Below are positions 49,219 through 59,400 of a DNA stretch of 64,000 nucleotides, piece after piece. The stretch covers positions 67,704,001-67,768,000 of the forward strand of contig JAGIQG010000002.1 of assembly GCA_024679065.1 (NCBI GenBank). The letters are read 5' to 3'. Below the pieces are notes generated by a model, which saw only the letters and a list, made by a program, of their open reading frames with translations, searched no databases and had not been told where the DNA came from. The DNA comes from Sphyrna mokarran (taxonomy: Eukaryota). The position numbers were made by a program, and so were the translations under genes. Numbering within the stretch: the stretch's first letter is position 1; the number at the start of each line of letters is the position of its first letter.

Positions 49219-49387
49219 TAGTTTCAAATCGTATAATAAAATGTTGAAGAAAAGAATGTCTCTATATATCAACATAACTATACCAATTATTAACTTTTTA
49301 AATACATTATACCTAAACTAAAGACTAACAATTGATTTTTATAATGAAATTGATGTTTTAACTTTGTTTTCTCAAAAGCATTATTAT

Positions 49388-50395
49388 TCATAGTATCGCC
49401 GTGGGTGGTAAAATATCCGGCTGCTCTTGAGCTACAGCAGACGTTGCTGTTTGTCTTTGTCCTGGCAATATTTCTCCTCAAGCTCCTCATTCTGATTCTG
49501 CAGCTTATGTTTCTCTTCTAACCACTGATGCACCTGTCTTCCACCAGATTTCCAGCTTCCTGCTGTGTCCGCTCAGCTTGGCTTCTTGCATTTTGGATTT
49601 CCTCTTTTAAACACTCCATCATTTCTAACAGTTTGTTATTGATCTCCAGTAAATCAGTCTCAGAGAGTGATATTGCATTAAGCTGCATCTATAGTTCACT
49701 AATGTCTGAATTCTGCACTGTCATTCTTTTTTTCAACTTCTTTGATTTAAAACACACGTGCTACTGAAGTTTTGACCCGAGTTTCAGGATTTCCCTTGTA
49801 GATGTCTCCTCAGCTAAGTAGTTTGTCTTCAATGTCCTCTTTCCCAATATATCACATTATATTCTGCTCAGCCTTCAATCTTTCTAGATCAACAGCTTTA
49901 TTCTCTAGTTTTAATTTTTCACTTCAGAATGCTGTAAACGTCTGGAAATCCATCTGAACATTCCAAACTAGCCCTCTTTCCTTTTCTGCAAGAGCTTTCT
50001 ATATCATAAAATCTTAGAAACCTACAGTGCAGAAAGAGGCCATTCGGCCCATCAAGTCTGCACCAACCACAATCCCAACCAGGTTCACCACCCCGCCCCA
50101 TTATCTCTACACATTTACCTGCTAATCCATCTAATTTATGCATCTCAGGACACTAAGGGACAATTTTAGCATAACCAATCAACCTAACATGGACATCTTT
50201 GGATTGTGAGGGGAAACTGAAGCACCCGGAGGAAACCCATGCAGACACAAGGAGAATGTGCAAACTCCACACAAACAGTGACCCAAGATGGGAATCGGAC
50301 CCAGGTCCCTGGAACTGTGAAGTAGCAGTGCTAATCACTGTGCCACCCATCTTTTGATATTAGCATTGAGAATTGCAATAACTGACTGCAAAGTA
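49388..50395 (-). pseudogene. CEP83: Intronless, 5'-truncated CEP83 (CCDC41) retrocopy fragment, interrupted by a SINE
   Basis: Minus-strand translation gives LQSVIAILNANIKR..KALAEKERGLV..EKLKLENKAVDLERLKAEQ..AEETSTREI..SETDLLEINNKLLEMMECLKEEIQNARSQAERTQQEA..QWLEEKHKL..EEKYCQ..QR.AVAQ. This is colinear with recalled human CEP83 (LQSDNEILK..EKLELENRLADLEKMKVE..SENDLLNSNQMLKEM..QWLEEKHKL..EEKYNQ). Stops and frameshifts are present. Confidence 0.88.
50003..50349 (-). mobile_element. Full-length V-SINE (HE1-like) inserted in the CEP83 retrocopy
   Basis: Head, V-domain and tail are all present. The CEP83 reading continues on both sides. Confidence 0.92.
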
Positions 50396-50399
50396 TTCA

Positions 50400-52000
50400 T
50401 ATAAATGATGAAATTTCCTCAATCTGTTGACTCTGTGACTCGGGCAATCGTTTCATTCTTCTGGTTGGAGGATGCTTTTCAATGGATCAAACCATTGATC
50501 TTCAGTGATATCTTCTCATGATTTATTGAGATCTGCTGCAGTCCTTTGCAACTACTCAACCCCAGGATATCAGAACCAAGAGTTTCCATGTCATAGAACA
50601 TGCAGTGTCTATTTCTTTGTATGTCTCTTTGATTTTGGTTATTCCTGGCAACTAGAGAATAAAGTTGTTGATCTAGAAAGATTGAATCTCAATTCAACCC
50701 TGTGCCATTACCCTGAGTTCACTTGATTTCAGAGCATCTTTTCTTGGGTAACCATTTCCTTATAGGTTTTTAGGGAGGATCTAGTATGGTTGGAATGGTA
50801 TGATGTTATTTGTGCTCTGGTATCAAGCTTCAGTTTCAGATTTACAGAGTGAGTTAATTTCTTACCTTCTTCCTGATCTGAGAGGTTGCATGGATTTCTT
50901 TATCTCTGGGAATTGTCATATCCAAATATTTCGTGCAGTTGTATTGTTCCTCTGTGTATTGTCAAGCTCATTCTTATCTTCCAAAGTATTGATGTTTAGC
51001 TTTCTTTTTTCTCCTCATTTACCCTGTTGCTCTGTTTCTGATAACTTCTTCATCATTTTCTTTCTTTGTTCTACTTGTCTTTCCCGGTGACTGGCTCCCC
51101 ATGATCTCTGCATTTTGCTCTGTTTGTGGGATATTTCCTTCTGTCTGTGAACTCAGGTGGTTGTCCACAGCTCTTGCACATCTTTGTCTGGACGGTGAAC
51201 ATTCTTTTGTTACTGTCTTACTGCACCAACCTGATGTCTTTTCCTTGACTTAATGCAGACTAATAATCTGGGTTGTCAGCATTTTCATTTGTCTATTTAA
51301 AGTTTATTTACTAGTAACAAGTAAAGCTTATATTAACAATGCAAAATACTTGTTGCTTCATGAGCTCTGACGTGTCACAAACCTGCAATACTGTGTATAC
51401 TTTACAGTGTGCACAGACTCAAGTGAGCTGATCAACCAGCCTTCCATCTGGTTCTTTGAATGGCTTCATTTCTCAACCTCATTAAGAAATTGTTACCAGG
51501 CTCACCTAATTCCTGCCTTGGACTTTGAAGTTCGTATCAGTGGAACAAGTGGCTTGATTTTGGCTGGCGATATATGTTGAATTTCACAAAATATTTGTCT
51601 GTGGTCTTATTATCATCCTGTTTGTTTCCCAGCTATTAAAGAAGTTTAAACCTTACTCTGCTGTCTGCAAAAGGATGTAGCTGACTCTTTCATCTTCCCT
51701 GGTGACTTTTAGAAAGCTTTTGAATGATGATTTGTATTTTTGTTTTAACTTCTCATATTTCTCTATCATATCATTGGCTTCCTAATTTATCTGTGCTGGG
51801 GCTGCGGCTACATTGCATGCATTTCATTTTTGTGAAATTTATCTGTTTTCCCTCTCCCATCAGTGCTTATGGTTGTTTCTTCCTCAATCTAATACAGCAT
51901 TAAATTCATTAAAGTTTTGGGCTTTGGCCATTTGCTGCCACGAGGCGGCAATTCTATTGTGTTTCCAATAGTTTGAAACAAGCTGACTTTTGGATTCCGA
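50400..52000 (-). mobile_element. Decayed Ty3/Gypsy LTR retrotransposon internal region (gag, zinc knuckle, aspartic protease)
   Basis: Minus strand: DERVSYILLQTAE*GLNFFNSW (~51630-51695), RQELGE (~51500), CKSCG..NH (~51160), LKLKLDTRAQ..IIP (DTG motif, ~50810-50835), FYDMETLGSDILGLSSCKGLQ (~50540-50600). Confidence 0.8.
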
Positions 52001-52178
52001 TGTTGGTATTTTATTGGGTTACACTTAAATGTTAGACCACACTGTGTGTAGACTGATACGTTGTTGCTTGATGCCATGACTGTACTGCAGGGATTCATGT
52101 GGCACTCTAGATCCTTACATATATAAACAATGAACATGTAATTCCTAAATCTTATTAAACTAAATAAAATAATCATCA
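52001..52178 (-). repeat. Candidate 5' LTR of the Gypsy element
   Basis: Minus strand begins TGATG and ends CAACA, with an internal TATATA and an AATAAA close to the end. It lies just upstream of gag. No second copy found. Confidence 0.45.
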
Positions 52179-52249: not shown

Positions 52250-55200
52250 GTCATTGAACTCTACCGTACATTCACAATAAGGCCAGTTTCCATGAAAATC
52301 AATATGGCTCAATTTTTTCTAAAATGGGAACCAGCAACATTGCTGACATGTCACAGCTTGCTGGGCATTCCTGAATTAGGGAAGAAATGGGCTTTATATT
52401 TCAGCAAAGGGGATTTCATAATCTCCTGCCTCAGCAGAAGGGGGATTTATGTCACTTTTCTAGGGTACTGGGATTTGCAAAGGTGCAGGGAACCATCAAT
52501 TTCATACGCACATCGCTGTGGGATCTACACTTTCATGAAGTAATGTCGCACAATTGCAAGAGCTATCATTTTCTTAATATGCAGTTTGTGTATAGCCATC
52601 GCATCAATGAATATCTGTTATCCTGGCAGAACCACAGTGCTTTTGTCCTGTCCTAGTCAACCATTCTTGCAATACTTGAGTGACCACAATGGGTCAACAA
52701 CCAGGAACAGCCTGAAATTGACTATCGGAGTTTTGCTGTTGGACGACTCAGAGAGGAGCCCTCCGGATACAGCAGAGTATCTGCAAATTCATAGTGCTCT
52801 GCAGTTTTCTCCAAAAGCATGAGGGCACAGTCATAACCCCATTTGGTCTTTGGTGAGGACATTTGCAAGATGATGATGAGGAGAAGACCTCTGAGACCCT
52901 TTTTCTTCAGTTCGGTTATGTGTGAGCAGCTGACCAGGCTTTGAATTCTTATCCACATGTCACCACTGCTCCACAAATCCTCATCTTTCCATCCTTCTAT
53001 TGAAGTCCTTCTGGCTACTGAGATATCCTTAAGAGCTTTATGTCCAAAATGAAAGTGTGCATTTCCATTGTGCCTGTCATATTGTTGCCTTTGTTTATTT
53101 GTCCCAGTGACTTGATGCAGTGCTACCCAAGTGACTGCAGCATGGTTAATAAAAAGCAATGGATTCTCAGTGGAGGAGATGACAGATTGCATTATTTGCC
53201 CTCAAGTAGCTCTGGACCTTGAAAGCCACAGCTTGTCATGGCTGGCAGTAATTTGGTTTGGCTGGCTGATGGACAACAACAAATAGGACTGAAGGAGTGG
53301 CAGTGGTGTGAGCATGAATTTGTCATCCTGAGAGAGGACAGCCATTCATGCAAAAGGAGTCACACTCACAGGGGAAGGTGCCTCAATGATCCCAGTAATC
53401 TGCTGGAGCACAGATTGCTGAACTGATATTAGTACCCACATGCCCTGCCAAATCCTGGAATATGGAACCCCAATGACAACAGTCTGAACTTCATGCCAAC
53501 TAACTTTGATCTCATGATTTTAGCCTGAGTTTTGAGCACAGCATTGAGATTTTAGCTTGTGCTGTAGAGGAAGCTGAGGCATTGACCATCAGATGCTGCA
53601 GCATTGCTGGGTCCATAAGTGCTGTTATAGAGTTGGCTTTCATTTCAACAGTGCAAATGTTGGATTCCAGGTTGTGTGTGAAGACCTGTACTGAGTTGGA
53701 ACTGGATGCCTCTATAGTCTAAACAATGAAAGCAGAATCTCTGGCAAGCCTTCCAATGCACCAAGCATTTGTTTGTCTATATCCATCAGTGTTCTTCTAT
53801 AAGCCATCAATGTCCTTAGTCCCCTATGTTTTGATACATTATCCTTTCTCTTTGGCTTAGTTGCAGCCCATTCATGCATCATCAGGACAGGGTGAGAGAT
53901 TCTCATCTGTATACTATCATTTCTATCAATATCTGAATCAGTAACTGAGAGTCACCTTGAGTGATGGAGCTTTTCATCAGTCATATGTCCCACAGGGGAC
54001 AGGTCTTGAGCGTCTGTCCTAACTGAATCAGGAACAGCTTCTTCCCTGCTGCCATCAGACTTTTGAATGGGCCTATCTCGCATTACGTTGAACTTTCTCT
54101 ACACCCTAGCTATGACTGTAACACTACATTCTGCACTCTCTCCTTTCCTTCTCTATGAATGGAATGCTTTGTCTGTATGGCATGCAAGAAACAATACTTT
54201 TCACTGTATGCTAATACGTGTCACAATAATAAATCAAATCAAAATCAAATATTGTGTTTTTCTTCAAAGTAAAAACATACCAATCAAACAAAAAATTGGT
54301 GAAATAATAATATGCTCTTTATTTGGGAATAAAACTAGGCAGATACGGTTCACTGGAAAATCTCTACCCTGTTGCTTGCTGACTGAATAAAGTCACAGGA
54401 TTAACACATCATATCCTGTCAAGAGAATAATGATTAATCGCAGTTTAAGATACGCACTTGAAATGCATATATTATATCACAACAGGGTGAATGTGAAGTG
54501 AGATTTCAGATGGGGCATAAGGCAGGACGACACTGAATATTATCAGTGACACAGATGCAACGCCCTCAGTCACTGTTGGCCCGATACTTAAAGAGGCCCT
54601 GTCTCTTCCAAGAGGCTCAGGGTGTCCTCGACCAATTCTCTACAGCTCTCTGTGGTTCTGAGTATCTTTGTCCTGCCAAACAGAGGGAAGAATGACATTA
54701 TCTGTGTTTAACTGTGTTGCATTGTGGTTGGGCAATTTGCCTGCTGTAGTTGAATGGTGGAAGTATGTAGTAGCAGAGAAGTGTGGGTGCAAAGCTGATA
54801 GAAATGTGTGTGAAGGTGAGGTGAGCATCTGAATAATACTGAAAATTCTGGTTGCTGAATGCGAGTGGTGTGGTGCATTGAGCAGCACGAGAGTTTGCTG
54901 GTGAGTAAAGTGATGTTACTGAGAGACGCATTCACTGACTTCACTTCTGCGGGGTCATTGAACTCTTTTGTGGCACTGTGGCCAGATTCTTGCACCAGAA
55001 ACCTGGAAGTCAGCTCTCCGCATGCCTCTCCCCTCCCCCCAGTTCCCTTCCCAACTTGTGCCTTGAGGGCCTCCCGGACCCCTGTGGAAACTTGATGGCT
55101 CCCTTCCTTTTGATCTCCTGGACCACAGCCATCAGCAGCACATCAGAGAACATGGGAACCTTTTCTTTCTCTGACCTCTAGTTCAACTGGTGGTCATCTC

Positions 55201-58011: not shown

Positions 58012-58386
58012 CATAGTATCATAAAACTATAGAATCTTTACTGTACAGAAGGAGCTCATTCAACCCATTGAGTCTGGACTTACTTTCTGAAAGAGGATCA
58101 TACCAAGACCCACCAACTCCCGCCATCTCATTCCTACAGCCTGCACATTCACCATGAATAATCCACCAAACCTACACATCTTTGGTCTCTAAGGGACAAT
58201 TTATTACAGACAATCCACCAAACTTGCACATCTTTGAACTGTGGGAGGAAACTGGAGCACTTGGAGGAAATCCGGGCAGACGTGCAAATGAATGTGCAAA
58301 TTCCGCATAGTCACCCGAGGATGGAATCAAATCCGGGTCCCTGGCACTATGAGGCAGCAGTGCTAACCATTGTGTCACAGTGCCGC
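58012..58386 (-). mobile_element. V-SINE (HE1-like)
   Basis: Reverse-complement head ggcggcactgtgacacaatggttagcactgctgcctca and V-domain. Confidence 0.9.
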
Positions 58387-58439: not shown

Positions 58440-59400
58440 AAAAGTTGTTCTGGACAAAGTTCCCATTCTGACTGTATAGCCATGTCTAGAGGGACCTCCT
58501 TCTGTAATAAAAATATACAAAAGACGCAAATCATAAAGTTTGGTACATGCAGTATCAGGATCCAAATGGGGGCATTTCAAAACTGTTAGACTTGCAGAAG
58601 CTGAGGCTCTTGCACTCCTGCCCTCTGGATCCTCTCATCTGCCTCAATTGTAGTCACACTCTCCGGTCTCTGACCATTGACCAAATCAGTCCAATTCCAA
58701 AGGATGTGACTACCTCCAGGTACAAAGTGTCCAGGTAGCTTTCCCCCTCAATAATGTGTCAGTGATGCAGATCAGCATCCAGCACAGTGACTTTGAGTTC
58801 AAGCTTTACCCTGCTTTACCATATTTACCCTGATCACAATGTTATCCAAGGGCTCCCACATGCTGCAGCCTTGACACATCAGCTGTCCTGCCATCCTTAG
58901 TGCATTTTTATTATGTTATTCAATTAATTATTTTTCTTTTTGATGTATTTACCAGATCTCATACTATTTTAAACTTAGGGAGTACAATAGACCTTAACCA
59001 TTTACCAGATATTCACCAGGCATTCACTAAGTAGCCAGCTTCTTCTTCAGTAATAGAGCAAGAATCAAATCCCACAAGATGGAAAAATTAGAAAAAGCAA
59101 AGGAACGCCTCCTTCCCCCTTTCTCTAACTCCCTCACTCGCCCAACCCCCTCACTCGTTCAATTCTAACCCCCTCACTCGCCCAACTCCGACCCCCTCAC
59201 TCGCCCGACTCCGACCCCCTCACTCGCCCGACTCCAACCCCCTCACTCGCCTGACTCCGACCCCCTCACTCGCCCGACTCCGACCCCCTCATTTGTCAAA
59301 CTCACTTTTGTTCAAAGTTGCACGGAGAGACTTACATTTATTTCCCTGAAAGAAGAGTTAGCTGAGCTCAGGACAGGAAGTTTCCTTAATTAACTAAGTA
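58440..59400 (-). mobile_element. CR1 5' region and ORF1 start (decayed)
   Basis: Minus strand has MAGQLMCQGCSMWE at ~58855-58895, the zinc-finger-like start of CR1 ORF1. Confidence 0.55.
59128..59292. repeat. 23 bp GC-rich minisatellite, about 7 copies
   Basis: Unit CCCCCTCACTCGCCCGACTCCGA. Confidence 0.92.

Follow-up and report, generated by a model that had tools for sequence, protein, structure and literature searches.

A Ty3/Gypsy family in Sphyrna mokarran that appears to have exchanged most of pol for a piece of spliced CEP83 mRNA

The stretch of DNA analysed here (the window: 64 kb, G000:C771:67704001-67768000, in a genome of 2.77 Gb) contains, on its minus strand, a decayed member of a Ty3/Gypsy family with many copies, in which reverse transcriptase (RT), RNase H and integrase very probably gave way to ∼690 nt of spliced CEP83 mRNA, likely via two microhomology-guided template switches. 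We put the probability of this reading at roughly 93%. Because siblings of the window copy have paired LTRs and CEP83-free relatives retain pol, we infer that a single capture replaced pol and that non-autonomous amplification followed. The order of parts in the window copy is 5' LTR, gag with zinc knuckle, protease, RT-core stub, CEP83 (∼aa 374-604) and the end of pol, as follows.

51944..52178, minus strand: decayed 5' LTR of ∼215-235 nt, ∼63% identical to siblings' 3' LTRs, aligned with 46 other LTR-region rows; larger LTR subtype
51933..51943, minus strand: primer-binding-site remnant immediately 3' of the LTR; the same motif stands after siblings' 5' LTRs, not after their 3' LTRs
51010..51931, minus strand: gag with a Cys/His zinc knuckle (∼51178-51095), with stops and frameshifts, located by tblastn with P0022/P0021
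51296-51344: ∼50-nt fragment of a high-copy repeat inside gag, called from depth and loose ends
50515..50840, minus strand: broken aspartic protease region, aligned to the P0022/P0021 protease motif region and the residues after it
50650..50686, plus strand: 37-nt inverted duplicate of CEP83 stretch 49874-49910, within the protease region, 36/37 identical
50401..50514, minus strand: spacer and stub before the RT core, with the ∼170-nt deletion of the 'short' subfamily
50351..50400, minus strand: captured CEP83 mRNA, 5' part, ∼aa 382-398 (mRNA 493-543, 80%; the family start is at ∼aa 374)
50005..50350, minus strand: later SINE-like insertion splitting the CEP83 part, with high-copy matches; absent from sibling L007/L060
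49421..50015, minus strand: captured CEP83 mRNA, 3' part, up to ∼aa 604, intronless over four exon junctions
49384..49420, minus strand: final ∼12 codons of the Gypsy pol ORF and stop; the same sequence terminates CEP83-free L118, L119 and L120
49244..49383, minus strand: Gypsy 3' untranslated tail, with a sibling match up to ∼49244

The window copy is incomplete and disabled. Its 5' switch point is partly deleted, the polypurine tract and 3' LTR are missing, and no LTR remnant was found elsewhere in the 64-kb window. The region at ∼52176-51950 is ∼63% identical to the 3' LTRs of L070, L062, L074 and L102. A sequence-only reading of this locus had described an LTR, gag, zinc knuckle and protease followed by about 220 codons of intronless CEP83. 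The identity of the parts stands, but the CEP83 part is split at ∼50350-50005 by a high-copy repeat of ∼345 nt, which we take to be a SINE; sibling L007 is continuous across the site. The whole CEP83 part carries 8 frameshifts and 6 stops, and these 14 breaks fit the earlier statement that the locus is disabled by stops. Further high-copy SINE-like repeats lie at 54018-54250 and 58159-58378, and a C-rich unit of 23 nt is repeated in tandem some eight times at 59119-59302. The 37-nt inverted duplicate sits 739 nt from its CEP83 source. It is much younger than the element and resembles a templated insertion made during DNA repair. In three other runs, the orthologous contigs are ∼24-26 nt shorter over this span, as would fit absence of the duplicate and a late, locus-specific origin.

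The Gypsy assignment of the window copy comes from tblastn with relatives, since Pfam returned no relevant match on the window's own decayed frames (eight frames, and later three window frames among ten). Positions 51778-50810 on the minus strand match P0022 and P0021 with E values of 4e-18 and 4e-22, across the Cys/His knuckle and the protease motif region, in agreement with what had been read from the letters. P0022 and P0021 are single-ORF Gypsy-type polyproteins of amphioxus with Pfam gag, RT, RNase H and integrase domains. A phmmer search started from an RT fragment of a related locus brought them up, and across that fragment they are 49% and 41% identical; a word-based homologue search with a different pol fragment gave no match. 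These K02A2.6-like proteins, which presumably belong with elements of the 'Mag clade', are the closest intact relatives of the parent that we found, with gag, RT, RNase H and integrase in one ORF. In contrast to the shark chimera, they retain pol and have no visible host gene at the CEP83 position. The P0021 model also has an N-terminal DM DNA-binding domain fused to Gypsy gag-pol, which may be a gene-model artefact or another fusion. Placement in Ty3/Gypsy is by best hits rather than by RT phylogeny.

Relatives that kept pol are present in the same genome. Eighteen of the 20 loci recovered with a gag-protease query lack CEP83, and several of them retain pol. One, L121, is colinear with P0022 residues 238-1152, through RT, RNase H and integrase; this colinearity and the Pfam order in P0022 give the parent family the domain order gag, protease, RT, RNase H, integrase. 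No intact helper element was found, and Pfam matches on the pol-bearing relatives were weak, below cut-off. Five CEP83-free loci (L115, L116, L118, L120 and L128) have large internal pol deletions of their own, implying that the parent family gave rise to other non-autonomous forms as well.

The donor of the captured piece is identifiable. An intact multi-exon CEP83 gene lies on a separate contig, where the full-length protein maps exon by exon from C760:4137979 onward; we delimited nine of its exons, every one bounded by AG and GT. Over the region studied, the host protein is 97.8% identical to that of Mustelus asterias and 74-80% identical to those of rays, which marks the host as a shark. 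Window positions 49992-49441 and 50400-50350 match shark CEP83 with E values of 4e-25 and 9e-20, and the frame of a sibling is 71% identical to Heptranchias CEP83 (E 4e-36, the best hit; 16 of 19 hits were named CEP83). The captured piece comprises ∼690 nt of spliced mRNA, starting mid-exon (∼aa 374) and ending at, or 3 nt beyond, the end of the fifth exon after the start exon (∼aa 604 of 732).

Loss of introns, which had been claimed for the window copy, is seen there and in its siblings. The window copy aligns continuously with the spliced exons of the donor over mRNA 493-543 and 532-1158. Among the 59 copies in hand, the five exon junctions are crossed by 40, 45, 49, 48 and 48 copies, respectively, and none of the crossing copies has an insertion of ≥20 nt at any of them.

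To describe the family, we oriented 97 loci: the window, 76 found with queries from the CEP83 part, and 20 found with the gag-protease query. Letters of CEP83 occur in 79 of the 97, all inside mRNA 458-1184, with the CEP83 part starting at mRNA 465-480 in 48 loci and ending at 1150-1170 in 44. Two of the 79 were set aside: L143, which adjoins L110 and was counted as its displaced 3' half, and L131. This leaves at least 77 elements, a floor, as each search scored best candidates only.

The junctions are shared. Gypsy sequence from the start of RT lies directly upstream in 51 of the 55 loci that reach the 5' end of the CEP83 part, and the Gypsy tail lies directly downstream in 42 of the 49 that reach its 3' end; 4 and 7 copies, respectively, fail the flank test. 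Both flanks are present in 25 loci (P at most 0.01 against 200 shuffles). The same pair of junctions thus recurs at many loci, several of them with paired LTRs, as a transduced family would predict. The 5' switch falls at P0022 residue ∼540, and the Pfam RT core starts at 541, which places CEP83 just where RT, RNase H and integrase should begin, as the sequence-only reading had it. That reading had also noted a short gap between protease and CEP83; the gap is itself Gypsy, the stub before the RT core. Past the 3' switch, the chimera enters the final ∼12 codons of pol and the stop. Pol does resume beyond CEP83, an outcome that had been proposed as a sign of simple nested insertion, but only as these codons and the 3' untranslated region. 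Between the two junctions, ∼2 kb of pol coding sequence is gone. The spliced host piece is thus flanked on both sides by the same element, whose internal sequence has been replaced rather than interrupted.

Short stretches of identity mark both switch points. At the 5' junction, AGAGA is common to the host mRNA and to pol-bearing L126, L122 and L119 (the last with one mismatch). At the 3' junction, GAGG is common to the host mRNA and L119, with L118 and L120 one letter off. The microhomologies are 5 nt and 4 nt long, respectively. No poly(A) tail was seen at either junction in the aligned copies.

These data bear on a second explanation, raised as the alternative in the sequence-only reading, whereby a LINE-made CEP83 retrocopy landed in one Gypsy element, pol was deleted later, and amplification of that element followed. 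In favor of this route, the fetched loci contain many LINE-type RT frames, and a deletion at the DNA level could use microhomology too. However, it requires two precise deletions, both in frame, to have taken away the mRNA's 3' end and poly(A) as well as every part of pol that would lie between the junctions. We found no intermediate and no copy extending beyond mRNA 1184, and when the full-length CEP83 protein was used as query, matches outside the gene fell only within aa 365-613. A LINE pseudogene would carry the mRNA 3' end, a poly(A) tail and its own target-site duplication; here the piece breaks off at ∼aa 604 of 732, with Gypsy sequence immediately after it. The shared junctions, the ∼2 kb of missing pol and the microhomology at both joints largely refute a LINE origin, and we consider it very improbable.

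Some copies have been rearranged further. In L098, RT residues 654-754 lie ahead of the stub; pieces of integrase are found upstream in L088 and within the cargo in L133; and L110 also has pol pieces out of order. These four may be further recombinants with autonomous RNA. In L125 and L144, gag is joined straight to the 3' part of CEP83 (from mRNA 855 and 814 onward, respectively), possibly as a result of further internal deletion.

Family LTRs are ∼215 nt long, and alignment reveals a polypurine tract before the 3' LTR and a conserved primer-binding motif after the 5' LTR. The LTRs of a pair are 69-73% identical in L060, L070, L092, L101 and L107, and 71% identical in CEP83-free L126. Candidate pairs in L057, L055 and L108 were set aside as doubtful after alignment, and the self-comparison used to find pairs also returned many unrelated SINE and LINE pairs. 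The lack of a 3' LTR remarked on earlier is therefore a property of the window copy and not of the family. Ty3/Gypsy insertions are typically flanked by target-site duplications of 4-6 bp. None was readable by eye at any LTR pair, as expected at ∼30% LTR divergence.

In a tree of 54 LTRs, 20 rows split from the rest (99/97, with bootstrap unsettled). All ten rows from long copies fall in the larger subtype. Rows from short copies occur in both subtypes (9 and 8), as do those from CEP83-free elements (3 and 6). Six elements are represented in the tree by both of their LTRs, and in each of the six the subtypes agree. The simplest order of forms is the long form, then the deletion that defines the short form, then a swap onto the second LTR subtype. 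Such a swap would imply co-packaging with helper RNAs. The earlier suggestion of a once-mobile non-autonomous family is upheld by these at least 77 elements, with their two length classes and two LTR subtypes.

Could the copies have arisen by segmental duplication, or by faulty assembly, rather than by retrotransposition? At least one non-LTR copying event has occurred: L131 (G000:C2:81939553-81939795 region), a later fragment of 332 nt that is 94% identical to L055, spans the 5' junction and half of the cargo with no other Gypsy sequence around it, which suggests that it was copied later from the L055 locus, via RNA or repair. For the family as a whole, though, the common sequence stops at the LTR edges, with no shared flanks beyond, and the copies, spread over more than 20 contigs, diverge by ∼18% from the column yardstick in the shape of a star. 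The window locus, moreover, is present in other runs, which speaks against an assembly artefact. We regard this explanation as having next to no chance of being correct.

The copies fall into two length classes. A deletion of ∼170 nt between the protease and the RT stub is present in ∼22 copies, including the window copy, and absent from ∼11. No diagnostic column in the CEP83 part separates 10 long from 22 short copies. Two common 3-nt deletions (11/44 and 6/47 copies) were treated as slippage; both are in triplet runs, and the first occurs in both length classes.

Spacing at the joints tends to preserve a reading frame. At the 5' switch, 19 of 32 copies have an anchor spacing divisible by three, with a mode of 33 nt (18 copies). 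At the 3' switch, 12 of 20 copies have such spacing, with modes of 42 or 39 nt. Spacing across the deletion is 27 nt in 9 of the 11 measurable short copies; the first test of the frame at this spacer had only 7 copies and was repeated with another anchor. These modal values point to one reading frame kept at all three joints, an outcome expected about 1 time in 27 by chance if the joints are independent.

Frame retention raises the possibility that the cargo was functional, i.e. that one Gag-protease-CEP83 polyprotein was made and its coiled coil aided spread, for example by tethering or docking particles at the germ-cell centriole. In addition to the three in-frame joints, several observations favor this idea. 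The nearest intact relatives are single ORFs, and the family is far more numerous than Bs1 (1-5 copies) or the two crocodilian captures (6 and 9 copies). In 8 of 229 columns, the residue most frequent among the copies occurs in no shark or ray orthologue; as 7 of these 8 are CpG columns, only 1 of 229 has a non-CpG residue foreign to these orthologues. Little or no protein change thus seems to have preceded the burst, and a short interval or constraint on the master copy would fit equally; a quick passage from capture to burst explains the near-zero stem change just as well as function does.

Decay among the copies looks neutral. For the 58 copies compared, divergence from the column yardstick is 15-26% (median 18%), and that from the host gene has a median of 23%. 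The raw ratio of nonsynonymous to synonymous change (N/S) was 0.62, which could be read as selection; that signal was gone after matching of mutation types and removal of CpG columns (0.98, CI 0.89-1.08). This value weighs against functional cargo, although it gauges decay after insertion and not the history of master copies. Synonymous rates predict 305 stops, whereas 195 are observed, a shortage that may reflect sequence context or the way in which copies were found. All 42 copies with coverage of ≥500 nt are broken at 5 or more sites, the window copy at 14. No intact ORF of the kind expected of a domesticated retrogene under purifying selection was found among the copies examined, which were the best-scored candidates, so an unseen intact copy may exist. 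Template switches guided by microhomology, furthermore, are often in the frame of the parent gene, as in 14 of 17 Drosophila cases given in PMC5131818. On balance, we think it unlikely, though more than a remote possibility, that the coiled coil aided spread. The CEP83 piece was most likely a passenger, and the kept frame would be most readily explained as a side effect of microhomology together with a need for an RNA that lacks an early stop.

When might the capture have occurred? In a tree of the 20 most complete of the 59 copies and 15 orthologues (bootstrap unsettled; horn sharks not sampled), the copies cluster in a single star-like group (91/85), with the five galeomorph rows as their sister group (85/83); those rows themselves group without the copies (96/88). 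At diagnostic columns, the copies have the all-shark state in 4 of 4 and the galeomorph state in 2 of 4, the other two showing the outside state. The state common to the host, Mustelus and Cetorhinus is seen in 1 of 3 columns (16 versus 15 copies), and that of the host and Mustelus in none of 7. One of three squalomorph columns goes against the galeomorph placement. According to the preprint 10.64898/2026.02.13.705779, non-hexanchiform sharks and rays date to 256 Ma (212-312), with most order splits in the Jurassic. The tree placement and these published dates together suggest capture at ∼260-170 Ma, with moderate confidence in the dating.

The window locus itself can be followed in other data. 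Four other runs yield contigs that join the upstream flank to the LTR and gag with 91-92% identity, three of which reach the 5' part of CEP83; the comparison covered these segments. No RNA run was among the listed holders. Three of the four runs are labelled as organisms other than that of the best holder, implying that the insertion predates those lineages.

The events might be ordered as follows. CEP83 mRNA would have been co-packaged with element RNA in a virus-like particle, as established retroelement biology allows, and RT would have switched templates twice, at the two microhomologies. The RT and integrase of autonomous relatives would then have copied the chimera in trans. Further recombination would have produced the in-frame deletion and then the swap onto the second LTR subtype. 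The burst probably came soon after capture, on the galeomorph shark stem, roughly 260-170 Ma.

The structure works like LTR-mediated retroposition and has the features of it that we looked for; the mechanism is already known. In animals, as described by Tan et al. 2016 (PMC5131818), a partial spliced mRNA lies within one discontinuous LTR element, with microsimilarity at the switches, neither poly(A) nor target-site duplication at the mRNA, and later non-autonomous movement. Compared with the cases in that account, the shark family is set apart by its at least 77 elements, its age of ∼200 My, its subfamilies and its LTR swap. Maize Bs1 and human HERV-K/FAM8A1 are likewise non-autonomous LTR elements with common switch points and host exons; as given in PMC5131818, Bs1 has 1-5 copies and three donor genes, whereas FAM8A1 is a retroviral case. 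Closest in setting are two crocodilian endogenous retroviruses, which captured nectin3 (CrocERV31) and KIT-ligand (CrocERV29) and number 6 and 9 copies (PMC4299795). Like the shark family, these are ancient, multi-copy captures of host mRNA in a non-mammalian vertebrate, and nectin3 replaces a viral gene. As PMC4299795 presents them, however, they are retroviruses in which env (or nothing) was replaced, and their ORFs are reported to be under purifying selection. The shark element is instead a Ty3/Gypsy element without pol, in which an internal coiled-coil fragment is fused in frame and the examined copies have decayed neutrally. Among the papers listed by literature searches, read at the level of listings and the openings of abstracts, we saw no report of a CEP83-carrying shark Gypsy family. 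Its unusual aspects are copy number (at least 77 versus 1-9), age, triple frame retention, the shark host and the Ty3/Gypsy class.

The family represents an unusually complete fossil of Ty3/Gypsy gene capture in a cartilaginous fish, in that a single genome still contains the gene that donated the piece, parents that bear pol, the two switch points, traces of two recombination steps that followed, and no fewer than 77 descendants. With it, LTR-mediated retroposition reaches sharks and an age of ∼200 My. By their presence or absence, the copies can mark early branching among galeomorphs, and they sample the CEP83 sequence of that time. They are also a hazard for annotation, where they can pass for 'CEP83-like' hits. 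Selection on the coiled coil during the family's mobile phase, if it occurred, would make this a rare instance of a retrotransposon using a centriole protein; and if the docking reading were true, a retrotransposon would have swapped its own enzymes for a host targeting module, the coiled coil of a centriole distal-appendage protein.
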